A DNA stretch of 63,993 nucleotides, the filler included. It is 9 parts of 9 records of this genome, joined end to end, with 100 filler letters (N's around TTAATTAATTAA, not from the genome) between each part and the next. Parts side by side here need not be neighbours in the genome. Positions count along the whole stretch, not along the records: positions 38,955 to 46,674 come from SRR7504441_6174; 8 more parts are not named here. One strand, given 5' to 3'. Under the pieces are notes generated by a model. The model did no database searches, was not told the DNA's origin, and worked only from the letters and a program-made list of their open reading frames with translations. The position numbers and the translations under genes were made by a program. Each line of letters opens with the position of its first letter. Within the stretch, counting starts at the first letter, position 1. Of the stretch, positions 3,001 through 46,774 are shown one piece after another.

Positions 3001-6000
3001 GGTTTCTTTCATCTGTTGCTTCATCACCAGTGGGGGCGAGCTTTTGTCCTTGGTAAAAGCAACGCTTCCGTGATAAGCGTGCCATTTCCTCGCACCGAGT
3101 GGTGTTTTCAAGTATGGCGCGAGCTTCATCCATGCTGAAACCAGCAAACTGAAGCACCATCAGGCACTGCGTTCTGCTCTTGCCACTCCGGTCCTGCAAC
3201 TGGTGGAGCTCTGCACACAGGGCATGCGAGGTAGCTACTGCAGCTTCAAAGCAATAGTTGCTCTGTTTGAGAGCTGCCCGCAAAACCAGCGCTGGAGCCG
3301 AATGCAAGTCCTGCAACTTGCGAAAGGCTAGCTCCTCGACATGAGCTACAAGCTTGAACCCCTTGGATATGCAACGGTTGAGCTGAGACAGCCTAGCGAC
3401 ACGCAATGAGTAGGGAATGACAACACCGGGGAGAGAAACCTGACGCAAGTGAAGAGGATCTCTGCTGTCTGAGTCAGGAGACAAGAGCAAGCGGCGTGTT
3501 CAAGGTATGGGTTGATCCTTTGAAGGTCCTCGACACTCTTGGTAGAAATGAGCACACTTGCCAGGTACTCAAACCAGAAGGTGCAACGCAGACCTGCAGC
3601 GCATGGTGGTCTCAGTTGGTGTCACAAAAGCTTACACCTGCTTCTCTCAGCAGTAGGAACACAACTTTCTCTGAGTCTGGCTCTCCATCTGTCGGTACTC
3701 TGTTGGCCGTTTCCAGAAGCTCGGCGATCTGGCTTGGTAGATACTCCTTGTCGATCTGCTGCTGCTGCTGCAGACGCGTGAGAAGAGCGAGTAACTCTGC
3801 ACGAGCACTGTGCAATGTTGCAGCAGCCTCACTGGACTTGCAGCCTGTTTTAAGACGCAAGACCTGCACCACAAATGGTCAGATCAATTGCAACAGGACA
3901 CGAATGCCTGAATTCGATCGGCGCTCAGGCACGCAAGGGACGACACCTCGAGCTGCTCCATTTTGTGAGAGAGATAGGCCGTGTCCTGTGTCATTCGCTC
4001 GAGGATAGCTTTGCCCGCAAACCCAGAAGCACTGAGCTGAAATGGGAGCTCTGGCTTGATGTCGACTGCCTCTATTCCATGCTGTGTCCAATGTGCTATC
4101 CCGTCAATGACACCGAGAGGAGCTCTAGCAAACACGTGCATCTCTGCCGGGAGAGGAAGATACGCCTGGGCAGTGTCTGTGATTCCCAGTTGCGCTTGAG
4201 ACCAAAGAGCTGGTTGCAAAGTAATCTTCTCTGGCTCTTCTCCCGGCTCATCTGTCACCTTGCTGATTTTGGGAGCCGGATGCAAGCCACTGCTCTCCGC
4301 ATTCGACCATTCACCCGTGGTGGGTGGGGTGTCGGCCTCTGAATAGGCACGATAGAAGTCGCCGTCCAGCTTGTCGAGCTTCGTTCGATCGGAGATATAC
4401 CAGAAGGCTGCCTTGTGCCCGTGGCGCATTCGAAACCGATACAGTATCAAATCACTCCCATCGTCTTGGTGGGTGTATATTGGAACCTCTGACTCTGGGA
4501 TTAGCCCCGCGTAAGTATACACGCCGTTGACGTGCGGGCTACCAGCACCGGCAACGAGATACGAGCTGCCTTCCTGTGGGCTTTCTTCTCCAGTGTATTC
4601 CTTCCAAACGAGGTCGTCCTGCAAGATTCGCCGGCCCAATACTGTTAGTTGTGCGATGAGGGTTGCCAGCTGTGGGTTGGTGGCAGGAGTGATGCCCCGG
4701 AGTAAGGAATCTCGGTTCTGCCACACAGTCTTAACAACCTATGACAGGAGTTCGCACCTTGGAAAATGGCAAAGAGGGGAATTGGTATGGAAACTGTATT
4801 GCAGAGTAGTTGGCGCTTGTCAAGGCCACAAGAGGACAAAGTGCGCTGTATGCCACGAGATGCTTGCGAATTTCAGCGTCCGCGTCTTTCTTGACATCAC
4901 CAGATGCATCGACCATAGTGCTCACAAATGCGCCATGAAGCATCATCTTTGCGAGGGTGGCACAGCAGCTGTGTACCCGCCGAGGACCTTCATCTGCCTC
5001 CACGATTTTGTGCTTTTCAGTCTCTGCTTCATCCTCGTCTTTAATGGTTGCAGGCACTTTTGCAGTGGCCTTAAGGGTTGCAGGGTCTATGTGTCGAAGG
5101 CACTCAACAGCGTGTTCGAAAACCCCTTTCGCCCGTCGGAGTGCGAACTCCGCAACCTCTCGCTCTATCCTCATATTCAGGGCTATGGCGGCCACCTCCA
5201 TCAGCTGCAGTACAATTGGTTCGGGCTCGTTCCCTGACTCTGCGTCTAACACCTTGATTTCCCCGGTCAATGCGCTGTCAACAATGCGCAGGTCCACTCG
5301 TCCTACCAGCATGTCATAAAGCAGACCAAATCCCGTGGCTCGAAAACTGCCTGCAAGATTGTCGGACCAGAAGAGATTGAGCGTCTCAAGAGCACCAGCT
5401 CCGACCAACGCCTCACCAGTTGGACGGTTGTATTTGACAGCAAAGTCGACAGAACCGGACTCGATTCCCTTGACGATATCCTGGTTGCTCACCTGCCTTG
5501 TTATGCTTGCCAATTGCTCTAGCAATCCGCCAATCTCTTTGGATTCAGGCTTGGGAAGCTCGAAAGTTGACGCGGCTGTAGGATCTTGGTGCGCCTTTTT
5601 CAGCGCCTTTAGATAAGAAAGCCGGCTCTCGTGGGTCTGGACCAGCTCCTCCTCAGAATGATCCAGCTTGCACAACGCAGAAACGTGGCCGAGTGTCTGT
5701 GTGTAGACTGCCACCGCACTCTCAGATTTAACACTCTTGGGCACGCATACCTCCAAGATCCTTGTCAACGTCCCAAGGTACCTTTGTTCGGGCCTGCTGA
5801 CACAGCAGCACGAGCCTAAGGCGACAAGCAACAGCATCTGGATGCGCATCTCGGAAGAATTTCTCGTCAGCGGTTCGGTTGATGAGCGAAAGGATAAACC
5901 TAAGACCCAGTCAGCAGAAGGATGGGGTGCACTAGGCTACACACTGTTGCTCTTTGTCGAACGGGGAATCAGTGGTGCAGGATTGCAGCCCTCGAGTCGC

Positions 6001-9000
6001 ATCAATGTACTGACATCCAACTAGTCGAAGCAAGACCAAGTAAAGAGCTGACGAGATACCATCTGTCTCCAGGAACGAGTTGCTGAGGTGCATTGGGTAG
6101 ACATAGAAGCGTGTTTGGACGCTGTTACTCCACTCAGTTGAGCGGTCAAGCACCAGCTCGGTCGAGAACGGGCATGCGCGTACCTAGCATAACTGTAAGG
6201 TCTTGTGAGCCTTCGGAGGGCTACCTTCACTCTTGATACACCAAAGTTGGGCACGAAAAGAGAGTACTCTCCATATTGGTTTTCGAGGACGAGTGCATGC
6301 GGGATCCCAATCAAGTGCTGTCGTACCTCTGCACTCTGGAGGCCACCCTTACTCACAAACAACCCTTGATGGTCGGAAGACATCAAGCTGACTCCGCCAC
6401 CAGGGCACGGCGCAGCTGTAAACTTGGTGTTGAGTCTTGGGAGCTCGACACTTGTGATCTCGCATATGTCGCCTGGCTCACCAAGCGATGTGCTCCAGAC
6501 CAGAATGTGAGATGCGTTCTCCATACGGGCAAACATAGACAGCACTAACGAGAGATCACTGCCCTCCGGGGCTTCAATTGCATTGAACAGCACCTCACTG
6601 GGCTCGGTCTGGCACTCGTCAAGACGCCGAACCACTGCGTCCCCACCTGCAAGCACAATATTCATTCACGCCTGGACGGTGTGCACCGTCAAGACCCTCA
6701 ATGAGGATCTGCTTGGATCCAGAATGCCTGGCGTACCCTCTGATGGTGTTATCACCAGTTCGCCAGAAGCTGAACTGCTCCAGCAGGCACTCGGGGACAA
6801 GCCCCCGCAGAGCATCTTCAGGCACGTACACCTCCATGTCCTGCTCTCCATGCACTGGCTTCAGCGAGGGCTCTGTCGCAGCCCGATGGCGCGAAATGAC
6901 CAACGAACCTACATCATGGTCGAACATGTATCCAACCCCAGGCACTTGCGGCACCGCGCCATCAGAGCTGAGGTAGCCTTCCAGGAAGTGCCCAGCAGCA
7001 AATCTCAGTCCGTCCGCCCACGGTTGCTCCCGATCCTTGCTTGAGCAGGCGAGATCTCGCAGCTCCCAGCGCGAATCAGTTGAGTAAACCAACTTCCGCA
7101 CCGCCTGGCGTCCGTGTATGTGTGTCAAGTAAATAGCTATCGTTTCCCTGGCGGCACGAGCTTCGATCTCAAACAGAGCGCCCGGATGGCCACGTCGCTG
7201 ATCTGTGTCTCCAGGGCCCTCCCTGAAATGCATCAGCCATTTTGCTGCCAAGTGGCTGGGACAGGCTTCTGAACAGACGTACAACGTAGGAAATTCATCG
7301 ACAGTGAGACCCCCATTCCGCTCGCTCGCAGTCGAAGGGTCGTAAAGTAGCACTTCTTTGAGCCGTCTGCTGGCCCAAACTGGCGCATGAGGCGTAGACT
7401 CGCAGTTGAGGTCGTAATCTTCATAGGCAGATCCACGGACGCTGACGCCGTGTGGACCAACTGAAGGCAAACCAGCAGCAACAGACGAGTCAAGCCCACC
7501 AAGCAGGCCTGTGTTGACGCCCTCCTGCCGCCCTGCAGTTCGTGCAGCCAGCGAATGCTTCACCCAGCCTGCTGGGGTGGACTGCAGCGGCCGCCAGGCA
7601 CACACGTCGTACACTTGGTCCTTGTTGAATACCTGTATCGTTTTCGAAGTAACAGACGTCCCCAAGACGGCACAGTAGAGTCCACCAGAGTCAGAGCCAT
7701 CAAGCTGCAGCGCTGCCCTGAAGTCGCGATGGCTCGATATCGAGGGCGGGACAGGCACACGAATTCGGCCACGAACAAACACCTCGGCGGTCTGTAAGTT
7801 GACTCGAAGCAGCCCATTAGGATCTTGGAAGACGCCACGGACCGCCTGCTCGCCAGCACTGGACTGTTGCATAGCTGCGTCATAGACTCCTTTCTTGAAA
7901 CCGGACCTGACCTGGTCGGTGTTGTGGCCTTCAGCTTGTAGAGCCTTCTGAACAGCAGCCTGCGGCACCCGCAGCTCTTCGCTTAGGGCCGCAACCACGG
8001 CCTGGGATATTGGTGCGTGTGCAGTGACCCGGAAACCCCAATCTTGGTTGGACGAATCGGACGAGAACTCAACAAACACCCGATCAGCACCGACCACCAG
8101 AGGAGGCCGGCCGTCTTTACCGGGCCAGTGCTCACCACTGATCCTCTCAGCTCCAGGGACGGGCACCAGACGGCCGGCTTGCTCTGTGTAGAGAGTCACA
8201 TAGTCACAGAGCGATTCAGTTGAGCACTGCTCATCGAAGTACAGCGTCATGTACTCCACCCCAGGAAAGTAGAATTCGTCGCGCTGGACCAGGTTTGGGT
8301 GGTATGGGTGGCTGGACTCTACAGTCCGGGAACACATTAACGGCTGCGAAGTGACCGAGACCCAATCTCGAGTGACCGCGCGTGCTGAGTCGGCGTCTAA
8401 CGAGGCCAGTCCACCTTTCAGTGCGACCGAGACCAGATCGCTGAGCACCAGATCCAGCTCATGAGGCTCAGCTGCACCGACAAGCAGCAAGAGCTGGTTC
8501 CTATGCACCTCAAACATGCCCAGCACAGCGCTCACTACCCCGTCTCCAGGGAAGGGGTCTGTGCCGGGAGGGGGACCAGGGCCTGTGAGGATAGTAAACA
8601 AATCGGCTTCTTCCTCTTCAACGCTTTCCGCCTCACCGCTGGCTTGTGCTGGGTCGACTCGCTGCTCGCTGTGCCAGGACATGACATACGCAACTGAGCA
8701 TAGGAAGAGCCTGCCGGTCTGAAAACTCAGGGCAGGGCTGCTTCCATAGACAAGCGCAAGATGAGCATGTAGCCGAACTGAATTAACAGTCTCGCCGGCT
8801 GCCTCGGACTGCGAGATCCAGAAGCGCAGCAAGGATACAATTCTCTCGAGACAGGGCCCGAGGATGCCATCCTCCGCAGGCCAGCTAGCATCTCCAGCGA
8901 AAGTCTTGATCCTTACAATCAAGCGTACTACAAACAGTAGGACTTCGACAAATCGGGAATTGTGATCACCAGTGCAGAGCGCCATGATTCCCTTGGCCAG

Positions 9001-12000
9001 CTTTGCTAAAGGCTCCAGAATCGAGTCAATGTTGTGCTCAATCTCATGCACCAGCAGTCCTTGTGCTGTGCCCAGGTAAGTGGCCCGGTCTTCCGCGACC
9101 ACTGGTATCTCCTGTGGCGAGATCTCCTCTGCAGAGTAATGCCGAGGCTCGAAAATGACGCTCTCAAGAACGCTTTGCAGCTTCGCACTGATGAGTAGCC
9201 TTGCACGCTCAGAGGCAAAGAAGTTGAGAACGAGTTGGATTGAAAGGCCAGGCACCGTGAGAAAAGAAAGAAACAGCTCAGCTGCGACATCAAAAGTAAT
9301 CAGCAGCCCTAGTCAGGGGGTCAGACCTTCCTCGTGAGAGAGTGTGTCATCAAACAAAGGGAGCTGGTCTCTCTTTATGTAAAGCACATCGGCCTCAGTC
9401 GCATTGTCGCTCTTGTAGCCTTCTAGCCCTAAGTATGTTGTTGGATCTGCCGGGCTGGGAGGATGAGGCATCCCGACGCCAATCATGTCCGCATCAGCTA
9501 CAGAGACTTTGAACGCCGAAAGCGACTCTTGAGTGGTGACAAATGCGAACATTGGTCGTGCATGGCTCGTGTACCACATTGCTGGCCACCGTTTGTTCTT
9601 GGGGTGGGCAGCCAGCAGCCCTGATGGCTCAAGCATGAGCTTATACAAGAAAATGATGTCCCTCAGATCGGCCATCTCAGGGCACTTGCCTTGCCAGCTG
9701 GACGCAAACCAGCGACCTAGTCTCTCGGGTTCGCCACAGTGGCCTGTTGCTTGATGGTATTGCGCAAGCCTGAGGTTGGCTGCGGGCAGCTCCTCGTCAC
9801 AACCAAGCACCTGCTCTTTCCGATTCAGCCCAGCTCCCGCAAGGCTCACGCCTGTGTCAGCTTCTTAGTGAAACCCAGTGTGACTTCATCTGCGTTAGCA
9901 GCAAAGTTGACTGCGCACAATGTCAGCATTGGCCACCTGGCAAGCCACCGTGTGGATGAGTGCCCACGAAGTTGAAGTCACTCATCAGGGCTGGCCGCTC
10001 ATCTTTTCCAAAGTATGCCAGCGCCATCTTGCGAGCAGCTGAGAACTCGCGAGAGTGCAGCAGCATGCATGCAGATAAGCTCTCAAGGCTCACTCCTGTG
10101 TGACTGGCTGTTGACACTGTGTAACCTTTATCCGCCTCGCCCTTCGCAGGCTTATCGGAAGGCTTCGTCTCGTCCTTTGCTTCAATCGAGCTAGCGCCTG
10201 TCAGCATCTGGAACAAGGCGGATGGCTGATCTGTAGCCTGCACTCGGATCACAGCCAGTGTGGTTGCGAGCAGCATGGCCATGGTGACGGCGTGGGCCGA
10301 ATCCATCCCACGGTCGCTGTCTTTCGACTTGCAAGCCGAGACATATTGCATCGCTATCTCCAGCAACTGACGAACGAGCCTTTGCTGAGCCTCAAGAGTC
10401 AATCCGTCGTTCGGAAAGCCACAATTATGCTCAGGCAGCTTGACGCCTCCGGTGAACGTGCGCTCGACCACAGCGCAGACCTGGTGCATAGCGGTCACCG
10501 GCGACGAGGCGATCGACTTATCACGAATTTGCGAGCAACTCTGACCCGCCAAAGTAAGCAAGCAGCTGTGGGTCGGGGCGAGTGCACCTCAAGACATTCT
10601 GTCAGCCGACCTGTGAGCTGGGCAAGGCTAGTGGTCGGTTCGCTAGGCTCCCAGCATAGGTCAACGAACAGGTCTGGCGCCACCTAAGTCGACCTGTCAG
10701 CTGTTTGTTTGGACTAGCCAACGACCTGCGTGTTCTTGCCAACAAAAGCCTTCACATCAGGGCATGTCAGTACCGCCTCCAGCCCACGAAACGGCATCAG
10801 CTCTGCCGACCCGGCCAGCGCAAACGCCTGATCCGCCAGTGAGTCCTTCTACAGGCCGATTCGATTCAAACAAACCTGGTCGGGTGCGCCGACGCTCGCC
10901 TCAGGCGCCACTTCTGCAACGAGCGCTGTGACTGCCTGGAGCCCCTCCGCCGCTCTGCGCAGCTGCTCAGGGCTCATCACCCCGCGCTTGTGCAGCTTAG
11001 CGGCCGCCAGCCCGGTCTGCTGGACAGCTAGCCGCACCAGCCGGCAGTCCGAGCTGTTGAGAGTTGGATGCGAACAGGCTCGGATCTGCCTTTCTGCCCT
11101 GCAGACAAACCCTGTTCGAATCCTCCAAAACAGCTGCTTCTGCTGGTCCACAGAAAACCCGTCCACCTTGAGCAGGTAACGGAAAGCGGTGAGCACGCAA
11201 CGGTAGAAGCACGTCCCAGACCGCTGTGGCGTCTCAAAGTGGCCACCAGAGTGCTGCGAGCGCTCTAAAGCTCCAGCCGGGCATGAGCCAGCCAGGTGGG
11301 GCAGCAAGACCTCGTAGAACATGGCCGAGCAGTTCTCCGGCCCGACGGTCATGATCATCTTCATAATCACGTACCAAGTTGCCTGGTCGCACACCTTGCT
11401 TGCCGGTACGCCCTCCAGCCGCATTGCGCATTGCCTCTTGAGTTTGGGATATTCGCCGGTGCTCTGCGGGTGGTACTGCACCCCGCCACCGGTGTTGCAG
11501 GTGACCAGCCCAAAGCTCCCGTCGTCGGCTTTCTCAAGGAGCAGCACGATGGCGTGGTTCCGGGCCGGGTTGGCGTTGATCCACCCCGCCGGGAAGGCCA
11601 GGCGCTCCCCAGGGGCCAGCCGGCTCACTCTGTCCATCATCCGCTCGACCATGGCCTGCATGTGCCCCGGGCCCCGCTCGGCCTTGATCTCCTCGTCCAG
11701 ATCTGCCAGCTGCTCTATAGCCGCCAGCACCGGCCCCAGCCGCCTCAGCTGTTCCTCGCTGAACAGGGTGAGCTCCCCGGCGCTGCCGCGGGCTCATCCG
11801 GCGGCCAGCGCGCGCAGCGCACCTCTGCAGCGCCTCCCGGGTGACTGAAAGCAGCGTGCGGATCGCCGGGCCTGGCCAGGGGCTCGGCCGCGGGCTGCGG
11901 GCTGGGCGGGCGCACCGATCGCCCCGCCCTCCAGCGCGGTGTTCTTGATGAAGGCGTCCCCGAACTGGCCTGCGAACGCCGACTGCCGCCAGATGCATTC

Positions 12001-12008: not shown

Positions 12009-12108
12009 NNNNNNNNNNNNNNNNNNNNNNNNNNNNNNNNNNNNNNNNNNNNTTAATTAATTAANNNNNNNNNNNNNNNNNNNNNNNNNNNNNNNNNNNN
12101 NNNNNNNN
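12009..12108. other. Artificial contig spacer; identical spacers at 23734-23833, 29999-30098, 38855-38954, 46675-46774, 51539-51638, 55554-55653, 60832-60931
   Basis: 44 N + TTAATTAATTAA (stops in all six frames) + 44 N, eight times. Confidence 0.99.
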
Positions 12109-18654: not shown

Positions 18655-21600
18655 TCACGCCTTCTGCTTCTTGGGCGGTGCGACCATCTCAATCGAAACT
18701 TGGTCGTAAGCTTCCATCGGCGGACAGGCACACACAAGGTTCCGATCGCCAAACTCGTCATTAATCCTTGCAGTTGGCCAGAACTTGGCCTGCCTGACCC
18801 AGGGCAGTGGGAAGGCTGCCTGTTCCCGCGAGTACCTGGCCGACCAGTCTCAGAGCCGGCCATGCCAAGCGACTCACGGGTGGTTCCACTCCCCCTGCGT
18901 GATCTTGGTGAGCGAATGCGGGGCGTTCACTAGCGGGTTATCATCTTTAGGCATCAGCCCTTGCTCCACTGCCCGGATCTCCTCCCTGATCGTGAGCAGC
19001 GCGTCAATGTAGCGATCCATCTCGGCTTTGTACTCGCTCTCCGTGGGCTCAATCATCAGCGTGCCCACCGCTGGCCAAGACATGGTGGGTGCGTGCAGCC
19101 CAAAGTCCATCAGCCGCTTGGCAATGTCCTTCTCGGAGATGCCTGTGCTGGTCTTGAGCGGGTTGATGTTCAGGATGAACTCATGCGCGTTCCGCCCGTT
19201 CTCTGCGGTGTACAGCACGGGGAATGCCTCCTTCAGCCGGGCGGCCATGTAGTTGGCGTTGAGCACAGCCACTGCAGTGCCTTGCTTGAGACCAGCCGAC
19301 CCCAGTGTCTTAATGTACATGTACGATATCGGCAGAATGCTTGCAGAGCCCCAAGGCGCGGCCGCAATGGGCCCAAGTGGGTGCTCCCCGCCGGTAGGGA
19401 CCACCTGTCTCAAGCGGTGAGTCGCGGCCATCAGGCCAAACTGACCGGATGCGAAGGCAGGAACGGAGCGAGGTGCGCTGCCACGCCGATCGGCCCGACT
19501 CCTGGCCCGCCTCCGCCATGCGGGATGCAGAAGGTCTTGTGCAAGTTAAGATGGCAAACGTCAGCCCCGATCTCGCCAGGCGAAGTGTACCCGACTTGGG
19601 CGTTCATGTTGGCTCCGTCCATGTAGACCTGCCGCCGGAATGGTCAGGGCTAGCGCGCTCGACGGCTGCCTGTCCGCCGTGCTCGTGGATCTTCTTGCAC
19701 ACCTCGACTACGTGCTCTTCGAACACACCAAACGTGGAAGGGTAGGTGATCATGAGCGCCCCGAGCTGTTCCGAGTACTGCTCGGCCTTGGCGGTGAGGT
19801 CCTCCATATCCACGTATCCCATGCTGTCGCTCTTGACCACTACCACGTCCATACCACACATGGAGGCCGAGGCAGGGTTGGTCCCGTGAGCCGAGGACGG
19901 GATCAGGCACACCTTCCGGTGATCGTTCCCATTGGCACGGTGGTACTCCCGGATAGCCAGCAGCCCAGCGTACTCGCCCTGAGCACCAGAGTTGGGCTGC
20001 AGTGTGATCGCTGGGAAGCCTGCCCACACCAGTCAGCCCGGCACACCTCGGGGATCAACCGGTGATATCGCAGAGGTCGGCCGATAGCTCATCTATCATC
20101 TGCTTGTAGCCCTCAGCCTGGTCCGCCGGGGCGAACGGGTGCATCTTCCCGAACTCGGGCCAGGAGACCGGGAGCATCTCGCAAGTGGCGTTGAGCTTCA
20201 TCGTGCATGAGCCCAGAGGAATCATGGATCGAGTCAGAGAAACGTCCCGATCTGCCAGCTTGCAGATGTATCGTGTCATGGCAGCCTCGCTCTGGTAAGA
20301 CGTGAACACAGGGTTCTGCAGGATGGCCCCCTCGCGCGCGATCCCGGCCGGCAGGCTCAGATCTAGCTCGCTCAGTATCTGCTCGGGGCTGCTCACTGTC
20401 TTGCCATCAGCAAACACTGAGAGCACATCAGCCAGGTGCGCGCTGGTTGTGGTCTCGTCAAAAGAGAGGCCAAGCCCGTCATCGAACTGGCGCATATTGA
20501 ACCCTGCGGCCACGCCGGCCTGCAGCAGTTTCTCCGGCTGGTCGCATCGCACCCTAATAGTGTCGAATATGGCGCCCTGGTCTACTTGGTATCCGAGCTG
20601 CTCAAGACCCGCCCTTACCACACTCGCACAGGCATGCGTCCGGTCCGCAATCCGGCGGAGCCCCTCCGGCCCGTGATAGATGGCGTACATGGAGGCCATA
20701 TTGGCCAGCAGAGCTTGCGCGGTGCACACATTCGAAGTTGCCTTGTCCCTCCTGATGTGCTGCTCTCGAGTCTGGAGAGTGAGTCGGATGCCAGGCAGCC
20801 CGTCCTCGTCCTTGGAGATGCCCATGATCCGACCGGGCATTTTGCGCACGATAGCGTTGCCGCCAGAGACCGCGAAGAAGGCCGCGTGTGGGCCTCCGTA
20901 TCTGGTCACACTATCAAGCACGCATCTACTGCCAGGCCACTTACCCCATTGGGACTCCAAAGCGCTGAGCCGAGCCGAGCGCGATGTCAGCCCCGAAGTG
21001 ACCGGGCGGCTGGATCTTTGTGAGCGCCAACAAGTCTGTGGCGACGACCAGCTTGCACTTGGCTGCCCCTTTATGACCCTAGGCCCAGCAGCTCGCTCGC
21101 ACCGTTGGTTTTGACCTTGGCTGCCAGCCCAGACATATCCTCCAGCCGGCCGTCCGTCGCCGGGTACTGCACCATCGCGCCGCACAGATCGGGCGTGCCC
21201 TCGAAGTCGAAAGAGCTGTGGTCGGCTACGATCACCTGCCAATTGAGGCTCCTCGGCGCCGAGGCATAGAGCCCTACCTCAACTCCTAGTGGCTCAGCGC
21301 GCTGCTTGACCACGGCAATGCTCTGCGGGTGGCAGCTGCTCGAGATGAAGAACTTTTTATTCTGGAGAAGGCTCAGCGGGTCGGGGCCAGGCCGAGCGCC
21401 TTTGGGCTGAGGGAGAGACACATGGACATGGCTTCGGCACTCGCTGTGGCCTGTAACAGATTGAGCGGCCGGCCGGCGGGAGGGCGAGCCTCGTCGAGCA
21501 GGGATGCGTTGGCCAGGTCCATGGCGGTGAGGTCGGCCACCATTGTCTGGTAGTTGAGAAGCGACTCCATGCGGCCTTGCGACACCTCAGCCTGGTAAGG

Positions 21601-31307: not shown

Positions 31308-34191
31308 CTACTTAAACACCTTGTGCTTCTTCTTGGGGCGAATGCTTTTAAGCTGCTCCCCAAAGAACGCCGCGTTGCTGCCCAGCTCAAGCTCCTGCCG
31401 CATGAACTGCATCGCGGCCACATTCTTCCCGACCATCAGCTTGAGCGCCCGCAGTTTGCCCCGGGCCAGCTGCATCAGCTCCTCCAGTTCGTTCAACACG
31501 TCCCGCTGCCCGACCATGATCTGCCGGTGGTGCAGTCGGAGCACAAAGAACAGCGCCTTGCAGCAGAGCTCTACCTGCACCCCCTCCGCCAGCCAGGCCT
31601 TGATATGCTTCAGCAAATACAGCGCGCTCGCAAATGGCAGCAGCAGCAGCGAATGCTCGAGCGCCGCCGCCGAGGTGCCGCTGAGCGTCTTGATCAGATG
31701 GTCAGGCCCGGTCTGGCCCAGCAGGAGGATGTTAGGCTCTGGTATGGTCGGTTCCTCATACGGCTTGCCCAGCGCCTCGGCTGCGTGCTGGGCCGCCTCG
31801 ATTGCTTTCTCGTGGCCTACATGTCGCGCCTCGTCCTCCTCGGCCAGCTCAAGAGCTTCAAACAGCCGCTCACTAGCCATCAGTGTCTCCGAGCTGGTCT
31901 TGGCAGCCGGTGCCGACTCGGCGGCTGGGTCGGTGGCGGCCCCGTCCTTGTCGAGGTTTGCCTCGAACAGCTCTTGCAGCGCGTTCTCACGTTCCTCTTC
32001 GATGAACACCTGGTCGTCTGTCCGCTGCCAGTACCGTATCGAGCGGTCGTTAGACACGGTGAGTGCAAAGTCGCCCACGTGGCTCACAGCCACTCCCCAC
32101 ACCTGCCCCGGCTCACCCACGGGGCTGCCGGCCGGGGGAAGACCTCGGCGTGGTGGGCGGGCATTGCCATGACCATCTCGCGCGAGTCACCGTCCCAATA
32201 CTTGACCATTTTGTCCTTCCCCGTGGAGAAAAAGTAGTGCGATCCAGGTACAAACTTGACCGAGGTGACCGAATCGTCGTGCGCGTGCAGCGACTTGTGC
32301 AGGTCTCCAAAGTCCAGCCCCCACAGCTTAATGCCTGCCCAGGGCGTCAAACCGCCAGGCTCCGGCCGCACTCTTGTCAGCAGAGCCCGTAGCGAGCAAT
32401 GTGCAGTCATCAGACGCGTCGAGCGCGAGCACAGGCAGCTTGTGCCCGTACAGCGAGAGGAAGAACTTGAGCGACTCCTCCAGGAACACTTTGACGGTGC
32501 TGTCCAGCATCGCCACGCACACCAGCCGGCTGTCCCTTGTGAGAGTGACTGCGAGAACTTCGTCCGACATGTTCATCGAGTGAAACGGGACCAGTTCCAG
32601 CCTCTTCTCGGCCCCACCGGCCAGCCCGAGCTTCCAAAACCGCACCACCTGCCCCCGAGCTCGCCGCCGGCCAGGCAGGCCCGGGGTGCCTTGTCGGCGC
32701 CTCCGCTGATCACAGTCTTGCCATCTCGTGAGCAGCAGAGCGTCCAGACGTTCCCGGAGTGGGCCTCCTCGAGCTTGTGTGAGACCGACCCAGCCGCCAC
32801 GTCGCACACAGTGAGCGAGCCGTCCTTGGATCCAACCACCAGGTGGTTGTAGCTCCCCACCACAAACACAGCGCACAGAGCTTGCGGCGTCTCGAGAGTC
32901 TGGACCAGCCGCAGTCCGTCGACAGCCCACACTTTGGCGCCGTCGTTGGCACACGTCACTAGGTGCGAGCTGTCCGACGACAGGGCCAGGGCTCGCACAC
33001 CTGCCCGCACTCGCCGGGGGGCGGGCTGCACGAGCCACCGGAGCGATGACCCATCCGTTCGATTGTGCTCACTCGCTTTCCGGTGTCTTTACTCGTCCTG
33101 TAAACGCAGACCGAGTTGTCGTGCAGCGCCAGCAGCATCTGCGAGCCGTCCGCCCCCCAGCTGAACGACCGGGCCCGGGTCCTAACCGCCACTGTGCACA
33201 CTTTCCCCAACTGCGGCCCCGGCTTGCCCCCAGCCAGCCAGCGACCCGCACCTCGAGGGTCGCAGTCTGCCCGCTTTCTTCCTCAGGAGGGGCCGCCCCA
33301 GCCTCGGCCGCCTTCTTCTTCTGCTGCCGCACCCTCTTGGCTCGCCGCCGGTCCACTTCGTCAGCGGGCCGCACTTTGAACACCTCGACGGCTCTGTCCG
33401 CACCTGCCTACCCTCACCCCCGCCCCCCCCGCAGCCGCACCCAGACAGCCCAGCTCGGCCCCAGTCGCCGGGTGGAACCGGACCATCACCGCTCTGTCGC
33501 GCGACTGTCGGTTCAAGCTGCCTAGAGAGGTTACTCCATCGGGCTGCCCGAGGTTGGTTGTGTCGTACAGTCTGAGCTCGCTGTCGTCGGAGCCTGTGGC
33601 CAGCCGAGTGCCGGCTGGGTTCACATCCAGAGTCCAGACCGGGTGCCGGTGCCCAACCACGGTCTGCACACAGTGCTGGGCCTCGAGGTTCCACACTTTG
33701 AGCAGACAGTCTTTGCTGCCCGAGACCAGCTGCCCACGCACGAACGCCAAATCGGTCACCCCGTCCTTGTGCCCCTTCAGCCGGTAAAGCCCGGCCTCGG
33801 CCACCACGTCCCACACGATGATGTCCGTGTCCTTGCCGCCCGACCCGAGCAGCGCGCCCGAGCTGTTGTAGCGCAGCGCAGTCACAGCCGACCGATGCCC
33901 GTGAAGCACCACCCCGGCCGACCCGTCCAGCCCCCAGGTGCGCACCGACCCGTCGCCGTGCCCGGCCGCCAGCTGGGCGGTCCCGGTGCAGAGCGCCAGC
34001 CGGGTCACTTCGGATTTGCTCCCGGCCAGCCTGTGGGCCGGGGTGGCCTTCTTCAAATCCCAAAGCACCACGTCCTCAAGCGCTGGGGTGGCCAGCAGGT
34101 TGGTGGAAGGGTCCCAGCAGGCATTCGAACCCGGCGAGCTGATCAGCCCGCCCGTCTGCTTGAGCTCGTAGCGAAGGTAAGACTTCACCAT
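31308..34191 (-). CDS. WDR3: U3 snoRNP WD40 protein UTP12/DIP2/WDR3
   Basis: Starts MVKSYLRY; WD40 repeats; LKFFLSLYGHKLPV, IKLWGLDFGDLHKSLHAH; Utp12 C-terminal domain LLLLPF. Confidence 0.95.
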
Positions 34192-34264
34192 CCGCGCGCC
34201 AAGTCGGCGTGGCGGCCGGCGTAAATGCCGTTGGAGTCGGTGCGGGCTGCGGGGGGACCCTGAG

Positions 34265-36025
34265 ATGGAGGCTCGGTGGCTGGCACTCGTGCTGGCCGCG
34301 CTGGTGGGCGGGTCACTGCTGGCGCTGGAGCTGCGGTCAGAGCCGGCCGAGTCCCGGTGGCGCGGCAGCCTGACCAGCCAGGCCGAGCAGAGCCAGAAGG
34401 CGGCCACTGACACGGCCCTCCGACGGCTGGGCGAGGCGCTTGCCGGGCACACCAGGGCACGGTCTGCCGGTGTGCGGGCTGTGGAGCAGAAGCAGGCGGC
34501 AGCCTTAGACAGAGCGGCCAGAGCGGAGGCGGACAGGGCGGTTAAGGAGGCGGAGCTGAAGGTTAAGGACGCGGCGAGCGGCGCCAAGCTGCAGGCGGAT
34601 ACGGCGGTGGTGGCGGCCCAGCTGCGGGCGGATACGGAGGTGACCAGGGTCAAGCTGCAGGCGGACACGGAGGTAGCGGCGGCCCTGCTGCGAGTGAGGC
34701 GGCTCGAGTCGCGGAATGCGGAGCTGGAGGCGGAGCTGAAGAAGCTACAGCAGATGTCGCAGCCAGCACGGTCGCCTGGGGAAGATGAACCGACCAGCCC
34801 CGGGCGGCCGAGCCAGCTGCGGCATACGCTCTGGCTTTATTTCAATATGCAGGTGTCGCGGCGGGTGAGGAGAAACGTGTGGGATCTAGGGTGCTGCGAT
34901 GAGGTGGCTATTGCTCCCATTCTGAGAGCAGTATACGACAAGTTATACATTGTCGCCCGCACCACAAAGGCTGGACCTCTGAGGGGCAGATTCCCTGCGA
35001 GGACCTTGATCGATGTCGGCGCCAATGACGGGCAGGAGGCCACTGCGCTCCTCAGTGCTTTCCACACAACACACACGGCCGCCATGTGCTACGGCGTCCG
35101 GCACAGCGGCGTGGGCGAGCCAGTGTTCCGTGTGATCTCGTTCGAGCCATCGGTGGCACTACAGGCCAGAGCTCCCACGGTGTGAGGATGAAGCAGATAT
35201 ATCCGAACGAATCCATCAACTGCGCGATGGGCTTGATCCACATCCCGACTTCAAAGATGACAAACGTGATTCTCTGCGCCTCGAGCAGCTGGCTCGCACC
35301 CTGGAGAACGTTGAAGTCACCACCCTCGGCGTCCACCTTGAGGCAAAAGATATCGTCCAATGTCCGGACGCACCTAGGGTGCTGGTGCTCGCATGGCAAC
35401 TTGCTGCTGCCCGTTTTGAGGCCTATGTCGCTATAAGCATTATCGAGTGTGAAAGAGAGGACGTTGACGGCTGTTGGCTGGCCGGTCGATGGCTTACACC
35501 TCTGAGACGACTCAAACACTTGCTCAAACATCTTGGAGCTGGCCCTACCAGGCGCCCCGCCAGCTTTTATGCTGCCTCCCTCATTGCCGACGTCGCTGAA
35601 TTGCACTTCCACTTCGACATTTGACAGCGCGATCTGAAAAGCATAAAATGTGGGGGCAGTCAGATTCCTCTGCTCGGCCAAAGCTCTCAGCCTGCAGAAT
35701 ACAGTCGGGCCGCAACGCTTCGACATCCCGCCCGACGTGGTGGTATCCCCACCTGGACAACATTGAGGATGCGAGTGGCCCAGCCGTGCTAGGAACGTCC
35801 GAGGGCAACCTTAAGATAACATGGTGGGGCAACGGCATCTGCGGCATACGAGGCAGCACGTCTTTGGAGATCTTCTGGCGGATGTATCACAGCACCAGCG
35901 AGGAGGTTCGCCGAGGCTTCCTCGAGCCCTACGATAACACGCCGTACAACCGGAGCGAGATAGATGCAGTATTCGAGGCCAAGGGGCACAAACTGCACTT
36001 AGCGGATGCATTTCACTTGTTATGA
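34265..36025 (+). CDS. Membrane-anchored FkbM-family (Methyltransf_21) methyltransferase; segment ~35153-35708 is coded on the minus strand
   Basis: Plus strand: TM, coiled coil, IDVGANDG, VISFEPS. Minus segment: PTVFCRL...IALSN...TLDN...LKVDAEGGDFNVLQGA...FVIFE...GYICF...LWPV. Plus strand resumes: WWYPHLD...WWGNGICG. Confidence 0.85.
34586..34684 (+). repeat. 33-bp (11-aa, hendecad) tandem repeat x3 in coiled-coil stalk
   Basis: KLQADTAVVAA / QLRADTEVTRV / KLQADTEVAAA. Confidence 0.8.
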
Positions 36026-38954: not shown

Positions 38955-39368
38955 GCACCAGCGGAGGGCGAGGCGGAGGCGGTAACGGAGGGCGAGGCAG
39001 AGGCGGTAGCGGAGCCGGGAACGGAGCAGCCCGGAACGGCCACTTCGCCGACGGGTCAGCCCTGCCCGAAGCCGCTCCCGCTGCCAACGGTCTCGTACCA
39101 GGAAGCCAAGCAACTGAACTCGCTCCGGGCCGAGGCCGCCCGTTACAAGAGGCTAGCAGGTGAGCTACAGGCCGAGCTGAGGGCCGGGAGGGAACAGCCC
39201 GGGGAGTGGAAGCTGCTGGCGGAGGTGGGTCGGCTGGAGCAGTGCGTCGAGCAGCAGAACCAGCTGATCCAGGTGTTGAGCGCTGAGCTGGCCGCGCAGT
39301 TGGCGCTGGGAAAGTCGTCGGGCGACTGCCACGCGGAGCTGGTTGAGCTGATGAAAAGCTACCACTAG
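38955..39368 (+). CDS. Coiled-coil protein C-terminus (5' partial)
   Basis: Open frame from the contig start to TAG; EGEAEAV repeat then heptad-rich sequence. Confidence 0.55.
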   Translation, partial: APAEGEAEAVTEGEAEAVAEPGTEQPGTATSPTGQPCPKPLPLPTVSYQEAKQLNSLRAEAARYKRLAGELQAELRAGREQPGEWKLLAEVGRLEQCVEQQNQLIQVLSAELAAQLALGKSSGDCHAELVELMKSYH

Positions 39369-39493
39369 CCAGCCGTCAGTGTGTTAAATTTAATGCGGCT
39401 ATTAATTCAGTGTAGGCTTATAGTTTGAATCTCGAGTGCCGCTCAAGATACTTGCACGTAGCCCGACGGGCTCTGTCTCAGCTCCGTAGTAGC

Positions 39494-40599
39494 TCAGTAG
39501 ATGTTGGTCTTGGCCTGGCTGACTTGGCTGGTGTCCAGCTGGGGCGGTGTATCGCACTGGCCGATCTTTGTCCCGGCCAGCAGCACAAACCCCAGCTCCT
39601 GGTCCACCACCCTCATCTCAAAGTGAGCGCTGTAAGCCCCGAGCACCACACCCGCCTGCTCGGCCTTGATCCCAGACAGCGCGATCGCCCCGCCCGCCCT
39701 GCGGCTGGTTACTAAATATAGCCGGGGCAGCCCGCCTGGTCGCGTAACGGAACTCGGGCTCCAAGTTAATAATAGGCTCAGGCAAGATGTTGCACAGCAC
39801 TATGTCGTAACCGTCCGCAGGCCGCTCAGGCTGATCTAAAAATAGACAGAGCTCAGCCCCGCCGGCGGGCCGGGCACCGCTGTTGTGGCAGAAGCGCGCG
39901 TGGTTGGATAAATTGTTCATCGCAGCGTTCTGTCTGGATACTAGCACCGCCTCCCGACTCAACTCCACTCCGAGCACACTCCTCGGGCCGCCCTTGAGAC
40001 GAGCCGCGGCCAGCAGCCCGAGCAGCCCGGAGCCCGATCCGAAGTCGAGCACCCGCGCCCCCGGCCGGCCCAGCTGCCCGGCCAGCCAGCGGCAGCAGAG
40101 CCGGGAGGAGGCGTGGTCATTGAGCCCGAACACCCCTGAGAGCGGCCCCTGGAGCATCAGCTCGGTGCCCGGCGCCGTAACCCACAGCCCCTCCGGCCGC
40201 AGCGCGCTGGCCCGCCAGTCGGCCCTCATAGCCTCCATCGCCTCCCGCTGCCACTCCTCCATCGGCGTCGGCCCGTCCAGCAGACCCCTGCCCCCTCAAT
40301 CGCCCCGACCCAGGGCGGGCGGGCTGCCGGGCCGCGTCGCCCGGGAAGAGCGCGTGGATGGTCTCGCCCCCCCAGCCGGCCAGCCCGTCTACCGGCTGGG
40401 CCACGGCTGCGGCCCCCAGCCGGTGCAGCCAGCTCTCGACCAAGGCCCGGTGGGGGCCGGCGGGGAGGGCCAGCTTGCGGTATACGGCAGGGGGCGGGGC
40501 CTGGCGCTGGCGGTGCACGGTGAGCATGATCAGCCCCAGCCAGAACAGCGCCCAGCACAGCATGCCGGCCGAGCCCCAGTCGTCATCCAGCGGCCACAT
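39494..40599 (-). CDS. PrmA-like class I SAM-dependent protein methyltransferase with N-terminal TM segment
   Basis: VFGLNDHASSRLC, VLDFGSGSGLLGL, YDIVLCNIL, IALSGI. Confidence 0.8.
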
Positions 40600-41426: not shown

Positions 41427-44400
41427 TTATGTTGGATCCCTTGCCGTCAGAAGATTTACTTCAATACGGTGGTCAGAGAAGCCCACCTCTTCCATCACAA
41501 GTTTATGCCTGCGAGTAGCTGTATTGTTCCAGGCCTCTACTCCAAGAGGCTGATTGATGTTCAGCATAAACTCCTTGACTCGATGTATGTGCATGTAATC
41601 GCCATTATAATGCGCCATGTCGGGATCTGCCATAGTCACCTTGAACCACTCGGTCTGGAACCTCTCCAGGGACTCATCGTTTATCAAAGAACTCTCTAAG
41701 TTTGAACAAAATGTGAAGTTGTCTAAAATCACAGCAACGAAGAGATTGAGCACAGCAAATACTCCTACAATGTAGAAGGAGATAAAATAGATTCCAGCAA
41801 CCTGCCAGCCAGGTCCGATTTAGTTCCAACCCCGGGTTATACTGGGCACCCAAGGCCTGCCACAATCGTCTGGAAGCCAATAGTTGCCCGACAGATCACC
41901 ATCAAAAGTGGTTTCGTACGGTGTACAGTCAGGCCACTGTACTTGACAGTCCTTCATTACAACATTCCAGTTTTCGCCTGTCAAGCACCGGACAAGTAGC
42001 AGCATCGAAGAACCAAAATTACGAAAGTTGTTGTGTGATGAGAGCGCGTCCCCAAACTTTACATTAGCAAACATTTGCATCCCAATCACAGAGTAAATGA
42101 ATAGGACCATGAACAGCAAGCTCCCAATGTTAAACATGGCTGGAAGAGAGACAGCTAGGGTCGTGACCATCATACGAATCCCCTTGGCTCGACGAATCAT
42201 GCGGAAGATCAGCAGCAGGCGTATTGGCCTGAGCGCCTGAAGTGGTATCCCAACACCATCTAAGAAAAAGAGGGCAACGCAGCCATAGATAATGAAAAAG
42301 TCGAACAGGTTCCATGCTAATGTGAAGTATCTGCGGAGTCCTTGGGCAACAATTCGCATATGGAGCTCAACAAAGAAGATGCATGCAAACGCAAAGTTGG
42401 CAAGCCTCATCATCTCTTCCCAGTCGCTTGTTTGAGCACAGTACTCCAGCGTCATCACCGCAGTATTGAGAATCAAGAGTGTCAGCACTGTCTGCTCAAA
42501 CCACTCAGCATTTGTCAACTTGAACATCATCTTTCGAATGTAGTTCTCTGGCTCATTGACAGGCGGTTCAACTACCTGAGTAGCTAGCGACAGCACCATG
42601 TCCTTAAAATTCTTCTGTTCGTCGGTGAGCATGCCTGCAACACGAAACTACTGAGCATCAAGCTAATATCAGGCTGAACCTCGACCCGACATCTGGTTGA
42701 ACTTTTCGATGATCACACCAACCACCATGTTCAAAATGAAGAATGCACAAACAAAAATCTGCAGTACAAAGAACATGGCCGCTATTGGGTTGTTGTCCTT
42801 CACTGGTTGGTTGTCCACTCCATTCATGTCGACGGCAGAATACATCACGTCAGTCCATCCCTCAAGAGAGGAAACCTCGAATAAACAAAGCATTCCATCG
42901 AAGACGTTGTCAAAGCTGTAACCAGGATTGGCCCATACAGCAGGAATCAAAATTCTGCCCCCCATGGCTTGTGTGCCATCCCAGCAGCAATTCTCACCCA
43001 GCGTCACTTTCAGCCAGACCGAGGCAGCTGTCACGCCCAGAGGCTTCGTCGTTGTTGCAAGAGTAAAACTGGCCCATGAAGAACCCCATTCCCATGACAG
43101 AAAACAAGAAGAAGAAGAAGACTGACAAGAACATCACATTCATAATAGCGGGCATTGAGCGCCACAAAGCTCCAAAGATCAATTGAATCTTTTCGTTCTT
43201 GGTTGCCATTCGCAGAGGCCGGATGGTCCTGTATTTAATTAGTTGCAGCAGAAGCTAGCGCTGCGCACCGTAGTGTACGAAGCGCCCTACCAATTCCTCC
43301 AGGAAGGAATGCCAGCAGCAGTGTTGTGTAAGAGATTATGATCACCATGAAATCAAGCCGGTTGAAAGCATCACCGAGATAAGCCGTGCGTGGCCCGTAG
43401 AATCCATAGGCAATTACCCTCATGATGAACTCTAATGTGAAGATGCCAAGCATCACGGGATCCACAATCATCAAGATTTCTGTGATCAGCTTTGATGGCT
43501 GCCATGGCGTGTCCACTGCGAGTGCGAAGTCTGCTCAAGGCGCTATCAAAACGAGCATGGTCACCGCTGTAAACATTTCAAGAAGTATATAGTTGGAGAA
43601 GACAAAGAAAGTGAGCATGAAGAAGAAAGACATGACAAGGTCAAGACCCTCCCTGTGCTCTGTTGGGCAAGCCGGTTCTCCAATCACTCCATTCTCTAAA
43701 TCTGGTGTGGGAAAGCACCGCAGGGTATTGTACATAATATCAGTCCAGTCTTCACCGGTCATAATTTGGAACAGCGTCAGAAGGGAGATCAGGAAGTTGT
43801 CAAAGTTGGCCCTTGGCACTTCACCATCTCCATCAAACAATCGCAAAGAGAAGAGCGAAGTGCCAAAAATTCCAAAGATGACCATGGCAAACATAATGAA
43901 AACAATCAAATTCGCAATTGAAGCCATTGAGCTGATCACTGTGTCAATCAAATCTTGCATCTGCCGAAGCAGCCTGAACATTCTGAAGAGCTTGAACACA
44001 CGAAGCATCGACAGATTGAATGCTGCTCCACCACCAGAAAAAAATCCAATCACCGTTGGGAGTGAGGAGGCAACCAGAATGAAGTCAAAGCAATTTGAAA
44101 AGTTGCCAAAATACCACTTAAGTCCCCCGTACCCACACCACTTTGCAAGCATCTCAAGCACAAAGATGATGGCAAAGATAGCCTCCCCTGTCTTGAGCAT
44201 CTCAATATATCCATCCGACATTCCATGATACTCCATGGCCATAAAGATGATATTCCCCATGATTGCTATGTTGAAGGAGGACGAGTCTGTGCCAGAGATC
44301 ACGGCTGTTGGTGTGCCCTCCACGTCTGCAGCCAGCTTGGGCAAGGGCAGTGGCAGCTCTGCTGAAATGCGGCACAACAGCACGGTGAGTAGCAGCGCTG

Positions 44401-46264
44401 TTACAGGTAACATGAGTGTTTTTCAGGTGCCAGCATCATCCTTTCTAGAAGAGGCAAAAGCAGCAATGGCATCTGAGCAGACTGACGAATTGCACATGAG
44501 TCCCGAGGAGATGGAGAAGATGATGGGCCCTACCATGGCTGTGGTCGTTCCCAAACGCCGAGCAGTCAACATCCGCTCTGTGGCTGCAACCCCTTCGAAA
44601 TATACTGACCACTTCATAAACGAACATCTGGATGGTGAGACAGCAGAGATGTTTCGAGAAAGAAAGCTAGAAGACGGCTGGGGCGAGTGTGCAATATGGC
44701 TGTGGTACCGTAGAGACCCGGAGCCTGATCCAGATTACCCTAATGTGCTGTCAGACCCGATTCTGTTTGACACAGCAATCGGCCGAATGGTGGCGTCGAC
44801 CACATTTGATACATTCCTTGCGAGCGGATTAAGCTCTATCACCTTTGCTCCAGGATCCGTGTTCATGTACCCGCTGAGCTGCTCCTGACTGGTTGCAATC
44901 TCGCGCATAGAAGCCAGCTCATCATCAGGAGGCTGGTCCTCTTTGCTCGCAACCTCGGCTGATGACTGCGATGCCCCCCCGAGTCCCGTCAGCGCCTTGA
45001 CTGCCAGATTCTGCGTGAACACGTTTGGACCGACTCTGTGCTGCGCAGAATTGAGCAGATTCTGCACAGTGAGGGTCCTCCTGCTGCGCATTTCCTCGAG
45101 GGCCTTATCCCTGTCTACTTGCTTGCGCTGCTGCTGGAAGGCAATTGTGATCACAGCGCAGTACAAGTTGATCACAAAGTAGGTGAATGTGAGCACAATT
45201 ATCACCATGTACATCCACGAAGGCTCAGACTCGGCATCCTGCAGCACGTACATCACACCTGTCCAGCCCTCCAGCGTTGACGCTTGAAAGATAGTCAGCG
45301 CAGCGATCGCGAGGTTGTCAAACGAGGTCCAGCCATCGTTTGGATTCTCACCAATCACACATGCAAACCCGCGCGGGCAGGTGAACGCAGCAGTCCCATG
45401 AGCCTTGGCCCGAGTATACAGGTCGGCATCGCACCACCTCTCGGGTTCCATTGCCTCGTCGCTTCCGTCGAGCGACAGGCACTGCTGCTTCATCTTGCAC
45501 TTGAAGATCTGGACGCCCATAATACCAAACAGCATCAACAGGAAGACCGTGAGCGTCACCACGTCCACAAACATGGGCAGCGCCCTGACCAGAGCATCGA
45601 GGATCGCGGCGCAGTACGTGAGGAATTTGATGGCCCTCAGTGCACGGAGTGCCCTGAACGCGCGGAACGGCTTGAGATTAGGCACGCCGGGCATCTCGAA
45701 GAACAAGAGCCAGCAGGCGACCACCACCACAAAGTCTAGCACATTGGCCCCGTTCTGCAAATAGGCGCCCTTCCCGAACATAAAGCCGTTGGCCAGGATG
45801 AGCAACAGCATCTCAACAGTGAACACGCAGTTGGTGGCCAAATCCATCTGATCCAGGATCTTGTAGCCCTGGCTCTTCTCCGGGAACCAGACCGGCGAGC
45901 TCATGGCCATCACCACCGTGCTCCACACAATCACCAGCATAATAAACCCTTCCCAGGCCGCGTTATTCACCAGCCCGATAGCCAACGCCCGGACCCGGTT
46001 GTCGGGCCCAATGCAGAAGAGCGCATTCCCGTGGTCCAGGCAATATTCCTCCTCGGGCTCGGCCGCGAACATGTCCACCGTCGGGGCCACTGCTTGCATC
46101 CCGAGCTGATCTACGAACGGTCGGCAGGCGCCCGGCGGGGGGCCGGGGGGCTCCGGGGGCTCGGGGGGCGCCGGGCTGAGAATGGGGGCGCTGCTGGCGT
46201 CGGAGGCCGAGTGCTCGTCCGAGGAGCCCCCCCCGAGCGGCTCCAGCTGCACCTCCTCGGGCAT
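41427..46264 (-). CDS. Four-domain voltage-gated Ca2+ channel alpha subunit (EEEE filter); segment ~44277-44815 is coded on the plus strand; II-III linker missing
   Basis: Pore loops TLEGW, TGEDW, SLEGW, TGENW; S4 helices RAFRALRALR, RVFKLFRMFR, RALRTLRTIRPLR, RPIRLLLIFRMIRR; IVS6 LNLFVAVILDNF followed by an EF-hand-like segment. Confidence 0.92.
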
Positions 46265-46774
46265 CGGCTAGCCCCTGCTGCGCCCCCCCCCTGCAGCACG
46301 CTGCTGATGAGATTCTTGGGAAACTTCGCCAAAAGGAAGTGCACTGACCCGTCTGTGCCTTGGGAGCGCTCCTGGGGGATGCAAGCCGGCCGGGGGGGCG
46401 CGGGATGCAAGCCGGCGCCGTCGGGGGTGGTGGACTCGTCCTGGCCCCCGCTGGACCCGCACAAGCAGCCGCCCACCCACCACGCATCATCGCCAGCGCT
46501 CGAGTCGTCGATCGCTCCGCCGGCGGTGCTGCACACCGGCCGCCTCGGGGCTGACCGGCCGCAGCTGGCGGAGGAAGCGCCGGGCGTGGACCTGTGCTCG
46601 GCGCCGGAGTCGCCCGAGGAGGAGCAGCTGCACACGGCGCTCCGGGCGGCCAGGGTGCCGCCCCCCCCCCCCCCNNNNNNNNNNNNNNNNNNNNNNNNNN
46701 NNNNNNNNNNNNNNNNNNTTAATTAATTAANNNNNNNNNNNNNNNNNNNNNNNNNNNNNNNNNNNNNNNNNNNN

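Follow-up and report, generated by a model that had tools for sequence, protein, structure and literature searches.

Does the organism behind this DNA carry a Ca2+ channel gene in which part of the coding sequence has been turned around, or was that part turned around only in the record? The question arises from a stretch of 63,993 bases (the window, meaning the whole stretch of DNA that was analyzed), which is made up of nine contigs of about 4-12 kb that have been chained and is not one molecule. The contig at 38955-46674 bears, on its minus strand, a four-domain voltage-gated cation channel gene. Within this gene, a unit of 543 bp, or 181 codons (44275-44817), is found on the plus strand, as delimited by contig joints, tblastn, and BLASTP. 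The unit encodes most of the linker between domains I and II together with the first residues of the first helix of domain II (IIS1). Our analysis gives us high confidence that the functional channel gene of the organism is collinear, and it leads us to regard the 543-bp flip as probably an artefact of the record and most likely not a real feature of the living population.

The identity of the gene is apparent from its domains. Pfam Ion_trans (PF00520) matches the minus strand at 44738-46267 (domain I, E 7e-50), 43535-44422 (domain II, E 2e-42), 43235-43534 (domain III, a partial open reading frame (ORF), E 2e-14), and 41820-42647 (domain IV, E 3e-43), which places the four six-transmembrane repeats of a four-domain cation channel of the Cav/Nav superfamily in one gene. 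Arg/Lys-rich S4 segments are present, and each pore loop, as read from the translations, contains one Glu: TLEGW in domain I, TGEDW in domain II, SLEGW in domain III, and TGENW in domain IV. Together, these four acidic residues form an EEEE pore ring, which we take to be the signature of Ca2+ channels and of Ca2+ selectivity. Ion_trans and tblastn matches delimit the parts of the gene that remain on the minus strand. At 44818-46267 are the N-terminus, domain I (S1-S6), and the I-II linker as far as ...NPLA; the rest of domain II, from IIS1 (LNIAIMGNIIFMAMEY...) to IIS6 (...EMFTAV), occupies 43565-44274; and 41427-43525, which contains short introns, encodes domain III from the middle of its S1, domain IV, and the C-terminal region (tblastn with P0003 residues 1126-1762). 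The Ion_trans match of domain II begins at profile position 10, compared with positions 2-3 in domains I and IV, which fits a missing start of S1 on the minus strand. Coding is interrupted in the record at both the I-II and the II-III linker. The gene as assembled is truncated after domain I and, judged from its reading frames, the record as it stands could not encode a working channel.

The closest relatives of the channel are environmental proteins. P0002, which came from a query with domain I, is 57% identical in domain I and 76% identical in domain II by tblastn; P0003 and P0004 are 46-47% identical, and the named matches, from green algae and animals, are at ∼30%. When P0002 is searched against the window by tblastn, its residues 44-443 map to 46054-44846 on the minus strand, its residues 511-632 map to 44448-44810 on the plus strand (E 3e-25), and its residues 636-874 return to the minus strand at 44272-43556. 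The plus frame at 44277-44815 is open over 179 amino acids (P0001) and lies in a 219-amino-acid plus ORF at 44229-44888. BLASTP aligns P0001 to P0002 residues 511-632 with E 2e-30 and 44% identity over 125 amino acids. By these alignments, the strand switch falls cleanly inside a collinear protein. A word-index search with P0001, among longer proteins and those of near length, returned no relatives; a later exhaustive HMMER search gave three proteins. Two of these, P0098 and P0099, run in one frame from IS6 through the linker into domain II, and in a MAFFT alignment all five of the relatives that span the region (P0002, P0003, P0004, P0098, and P0099) are collinear. The 4-domain relatives P0003 and P0004 are likewise collinear with the window in tblastn. 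The original prediction, that a minus-strand channel has its I-II linker and the start of IIS1 on the plus strand and that the plus-strand peptide would align to this part of the channel, is therefore borne out by BLASTP, tblastn, HMMER, and MAFFT.

The ends of the unit can be fixed with the help of two environmental contigs, in which 44818 on the minus strand joins directly to 44275 on the plus strand with one shared base. Because 44274 is complementary to 44818, a unit of 44274-44818 is equivalent to one of 44275-44817. With the unit flipped back, a single open frame of 910 codons runs through domain I, the linker, and domain II; as assembled, the record has three stops in this frame. The inversion had been placed at 44277-44815; flipping this interval does restore the frame, but it ends 2 bp short on each side of the true unit. 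In the same way, the joints were correctly expected to be in frame, but their residues differ from those proposed. The environmental contigs read NPLA-K-EDES at the first joint rather than NPLAR, and the predicted second joint is FDTF-LNIAIMG rather than FDTF-FNIA; the relatives have I or L at that position. The expectation that the breakpoints share only 1 bp holds at the joint that can be seen (44818|44275), and the AAGGA/TCCTT repeat that was said to overlap the ends is present at 44274-44278 and 44815-44819. We looked for an inverted repeat longer than these 5 bp at both ends of the unit and found none.

Whether the flipped or the collinear form exists in nature was addressed by comparing the Logan contigs of four public runs with positions 43000-46300. 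The evidence comes from contigs of other samples, not from the reads of the source sample, and such contigs can show the presence of a form, not its absence; the best public run shares 0.31 of the sampled words, and no run reaches half. The sole joint reported in the four runs connects 44275 and 44818 on opposite strands. It is carried by two contigs from runs of different studies. In run X1, by our guess a DNA library, a 261-nt contig follows the minus strand from 44959 to 44818 and then the plus strand from 44275 to 44393, with one mismatch. In run X9, a metatranscriptome, a 177-nt contig follows the minus strand from 44936 to 44818 and then the plus strand from 44275 to 44332, with none. 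Thus, both of the contigs that reach a breakpoint carry the un-inverted joint and neither carries the assembled one; at 44274/44275 and 44817/44818, the assembled order is spanned by none of the contigs of the four runs. The two contigs with the joint account wholly for the depth bins around both breakpoints. Over 177 + 268 bases, the X9 contigs show no difference from the window, the C at 44321 (T in X1) included; X1 has 5 differences in 934 bases. A haplotype resembling that of the window itself is collinear in the sea. The contig-free parts of the region include 44734-44817 and 44221-44274, which leaves the second joint uncovered and the contigs with no say on it either way. A biological inversion in the organism, as envisaged in the original prediction, is unsupported by this count, which comes from other samples and is not final; the proposal to count junction-spanning DNA and RNA reads for each orientation, carried out here with contigs of a DNA run and an RNA run, left the assembled joints without support in the four runs, a result that the original prediction had listed as refuting it. 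JGI metagenome contigs searched with peptide patterns and a 23-nt exact stretch gave no match, and neither did prokaryote genome contigs searched with a 29-nt stretch.

We note a separate feature of these runs at 43100-43133, where many contigs of 31-32 nt from X2 and X9 pile up to a depth of 140, with three mismatches each, and where one X9 contig has a loose end in a GAA/GAG-rich run. These short contigs probably come from other organisms that share the simple-sequence stretch and not from the channel gene.

The same data bear on the possibility that the record is faithful to a single lineage. Here, a private and very recent event of complex breakage and repair, by end joining or template switching, would have struck the sampled lineage or a duplicate copy of the gene. 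It would have inverted the 543 bp, deleted the II-III linker region, and left 39 bases of filler. The channel in the record would then be a pseudogene of very recent origin, with the intact gene still present and expressed in other cells of the species. The exact reciprocity of the flip and its 1-bp microhomology are what would be expected from two rejoined double-strand breaks; a k-mer assembler should need real molecules bearing both joints; and the remaining frame is undecayed, which fits a very recent event. However, the assembled joint is found in neither of the two contigs that reach a breakpoint, the X9 haplotype that is identical to the window is collinear, and an assembly of a population should yield the majority allele, which is here the functional one. 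We consider such an event the main rival explanation, possible but distinctly less likely than a fault of the record.

Another defect of the channel gene is relevant to both explanations. At 43526-43564 on the minus strand, 39 anomalous bases stand in place of the end of IIS6, the complete II-III linker, and IIIS1 up to its middle, as determined by tblastn, a motif search, and an environmental contig. After ...EMFTAV of IIS6, the minus strand reads TMLVLIAP, a stop, and ADF, and then continues with ALAVDTPW from the middle of IIIS1. In the relatives, the conserved end of IIS6 leads into a II-III linker of ∼160-190 residues and from there into the first half of IIIS1. The corresponding residues of P0003 (935-1125) and P0004 (721-883) have no counterpart anywhere in the window by tblastn, and a search for motifs of the S6-end type finds the domain IV copy alone. 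An X1 contig is identical to the window over 207 bases (43319-43525, no mismatches), beyond which it departs from the window for at least 255 bases; the first 30 bases past 43525 can be translated in frame as the missing half of an S1 helix. The loose end of this contig was searched for in the window and is absent from it, and a search of the window for a template of the 39 bases gave nothing apart from chance matches of 10 and 11 nt. An inversion with a nearby deletion and untemplated filler resembles a single complex event, as breakage and repair would produce. On the other hand, a second defect in the same gene, at a place where an environmental contig has proper coding for IIIS1, argues for a fault of the record.

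The wording of the original prediction, which called the channel inversion the second of its kind, implies another one, and we searched the window for it. A codon-likelihood scan of both strands found exactly two short segments sandwiched between flanks of at least 1 kb on the opposite strand (minimum length 600 nt, with the 240-nt scoring window counted in). One is the channel segment, and the other is a minus-strand segment at 35071-35821 between plus-strand flanks. A scan for triplets of ORFs had given 86 candidates and proved useless in this GC-rich DNA, and a first codon score was too weak. The plus ORF at 34181-35182 ends with ...LIDVGANDG...ISFEPS, and the minus ORF at 35055-35810 encodes the C-terminal part of an FkbM-type methyltransferase domain, matching Pfam Methyltransf_21 at positions 115-171 (E 4e-7) and NCBIfam TIGR01444 at positions 106-139. 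The plus frame resumes near 35711, so that the middle of the domain would also be on the minus strand and the C-terminal tail of the gene on the plus strand. A second reciprocal flip, in an FkbM-type methyltransferase gene, is therefore probable. The candidate unit is ∼556 bp (about 35153-35708, on the minus strand within a plus-strand gene at 34181-36022) and is drawn from reading frames rather than from homologues; we placed its breakpoints from the frames and from what we take to be the N-terminal motif of the family. The plus N-terminal piece had no match in Pfam, NCBIfam, or PDB sequence searches, and the minus piece had none in PDB or among plasmids. The nearest atlas clusters to the plus N-terminal piece are methyltransferases, including FkbM-named ones, with scores of 0.84-0.89, which is a lead and not evidence. 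Where checked, the genes for glycine dehydrogenase, WDR3, a short-chain dehydrogenase, and BOP1 have no flips, and none was seen in two ORF gaps inspected in a DUF3638 gene (1286-1622 and 3499-3884) or in the first 900 bases of the channel contig.

The probable methyltransferase flip lies on a different contig (30099-38854) from the channel. For a private rearrangement, it would require another, independent event within 64 kb. Natural microinversions, which arise from two breaks and end joining, are sub-kilobase in size, have precise ends with little or no homology at the joints, and are rare. The channel unit resembles them in its size, its precise ends, and its scant homology; two of them in 64 kb inside otherwise intact genes, together with a collinear and identical haplotype, argue against this origin. 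Two gene-breaking flips per 64 kb in genes that are otherwise undecayed are an impossible density for a living genome, and this points to an artefact.

The probable second inverted segment in another gene also counts in favor of programmed rearrangement. According to this idea, the record would be the germline-like or silent form of the genome of a GC-rich marine protist, in which the inverted or missing segments (channel 44275-44817, channel 43526-43564, and methyltransferase about 35153-35708) await restoration of a collinear gene, and the collinear DNA and RNA of seawater would be the processed form. Both forms do exist as nucleic acid, one in the record and one in the X1 contig, and the channel has one segment inverted and one missing from the locus. 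The known parallel is the scrambled germline genes of ciliates such as Oxytricha, whose inverted and displaced coding segments are re-ordered to give the gene. At the channel flip, however, there are no pointer repeats, the overlap being 1 bp, and no spacers, the inverted segment abutting its neighbors. The 39 bases at 43526-43564 could conceivably be a spacer, although nothing supports this. Moreover, the GC-rich composition, the standard genetic code, and the GT-AG introns of 35-48 nt are unlike those of known scrambled-gene organisms, and the co-occurrence of both forms in one organism has no support. We consider programmed rearrangement very improbable.

Even less probable, in our judgment, is that the unit is an invertible on/off switch or an exon on the opposite strand that is joined by trans-splicing. 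What speaks for these ideas is that the unit has an intron-like element in its own orientation and that the collinear joint occurs in a contig of an RNA library. The element is a putative GT-AG intron of 42 nt (GTGAGT...TTTCAG; 44385-44426, plus strand) that is in frame and stop-free; it was read from the sequence at the place and in the sense given in the original prediction, and it falls in the size class of the other introns of the gene, for which four minus-strand GT-AG introns of 40, 43, 45, and 48 nt can be read between 41770 and 43300. Its 14 codons correspond to an alignment gap relative to P0002 and P0098, and it lies outside the reach of the RNA-run contigs. From this reading, splicing of the element is likely; its retention is also possible, since it is in frame and without a stop. 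The X1 contig continues 9 bases into the element with no skipping, which fits either DNA or unspliced RNA. The collinear joint is thus found in an unspliced contig of a DNA library, which already contradicts these ideas, and no splice signals flank the joints, which speaks against trans-splicing. Against a switch, there are no inverted repeats of more than 5 bp and the true joint shares 1 bp, so that a crossover site is lacking. Furthermore, no recombinase domain was found in the Pfam-scanned ORFs of the contig at 38955-46674, a scan that did not take in all ORFs, with 38955-39835 inspected by eye.

We return to a fault of the record as the preferred explanation. The natural contigs contradict the assembled joint and none supports it, and the haplotype that matches the window exactly has the collinear order. 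The channel gene has a second defect, a second unlinked flip of similar size is probable on another contig, and the record is a fragmentary draft of short chained contigs; this context speaks for a fault of the record or a private lesion and not for a working feature. Taken together, the channel contig would contain two structural faults, a reciprocal flip (44275-44817) and a stretch that was collapsed or replaced (43526-43564), and a neighboring contig would probably contain a further flip of similar size. Such errors could have entered during production of the record, whether in assembly, when small pieces were oriented or joined, as chimeras of amplification, or at a subsequent in-silico stage. 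We infer both the step responsible and that the flipped form would lack support in the source reads.

Faults of this general kind have been described. Metagenome assemblers make local errors in which the consensus is without even one supporting read, according to Chen et al. 2020 (PMC7111523). The likeness to the present case lies in short, gene-breaking stretches of consensus in fragmentary drafts of uncultured organisms, and the 39 bases at 43526-43564 fit this description. Multiple displacement amplification (MDA) offers another comparison. In a study of green alga MDA libraries (bioRxiv 10.64898/2026.06.11.730069), each library gave 5,124-7,604 false inversion calls with a mean size of 1,493 bp, and Lasken and Stockwell 2007 (PMC1855051) describe MDA chimeras as inverted joins with an intervening deletion, mostly at 2-21 nt of complementarity. 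The dense small false inversions and deletions reported for genomes of single or few cells resemble the situation here.

Several points weigh against an artefact. The flip is exactly reciprocal: the first joint is exact to the base and the second to the codon, with an overlap of 1 bp. Nothing is lost or gained at the flip, and neither this nor the overlap matches the intervening deletion, the 2-21 nt of complementarity, and the non-reciprocal joins of MDA chimeras (PMC1855051). Flips in a de Bruijn graph need inverted repeats of at least the k-mer length, and there are none here; the flips described in the passages of PMC7111523 considered here all lie between long inverted repeats, and these passages do not cover a clean, reciprocal, repeat-free flip of 543 bp. 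Because the flip fits neither the MDA nor the graph pattern, no named assembly mechanism fits it well. Its reciprocity is better fitted by a true cut-and-rejoin event in a cell or by the deliberate in-silico reversal of a slice at a stage that followed assembly. The environmental data are also compatible with a minority inverted allele in nature, given that contigs speak for presence and not for absence, and they have limits of their own: the second joint is without contig cover, and the best run contains less than a third of the sampled words.

Should the flip be a fault of the record, it is useful chiefly as a caution. Genes and proteins predicted from this record would miss or truncate a four-domain Ca2+ channel, and probably the methyltransferase as well, and similar small flips may be frequent elsewhere in the assembly. 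If the flip is real, one lineage would have lost a voltage-gated Ca2+ channel very recently, a matter of modest interest; of the readings considered, only programmed rearrangement would be important if true, unlikely as it is. The channel itself is sound, is present in marine RNA libraries, and belongs to a little-studied group of protist EEEE channels. The useful outcomes are a corrected structure for an EEEE-type protist Ca2+ channel gene and a caution about flips and collapsed stretches.

The channel resembles the Cav-type channels of protists and algae in its four Ion_trans repeats, its R/K-rich S4 segments, and its four pore Glu residues, and the record departs from these relatives in that the opposite strand encodes the linker and the beginning of IIS1 and the II-III linker region is missing. 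P0003 and P0004 have SAM-domain inserts in the I-II linker by Pfam, whereas the window gene and P0002 do not. A block just before IIS1 (44440-44810, plus strand) is conserved (...GGET.EM.RER...W.W...DP.P....P...SDP..FD...GR..AS...) and is common to the window channel and P0002, P0098, P0099, P0003, and P0004. A Pfam scan assigned it to no family. This block may mark a distinct subgroup of protist Cav channels.

The remainder of the window provides context for its draft nature. Eight linkers of 100 bp, each of the form N44 + TTAATTAATTAA + N44, divide it; these six-frame stop spacers start at 12009, 23734, 29999, 38855, 46675, 51539, 55554, and 60832, and genes that flank a linker are not implied to be neighbors in the genome. 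The GC content is 47-68% in 2-kb windows. The glycine dehydrogenase gene has a 35-nt GT-AG intron (19630-19665). A giant gene, several thousand codons long and split into many ORF pieces, extends over 1-11800 on the minus strand; it contains a DUF3638/P-loop helicase-like domain at 1625-3499, and the rest of it has no Pfam match.

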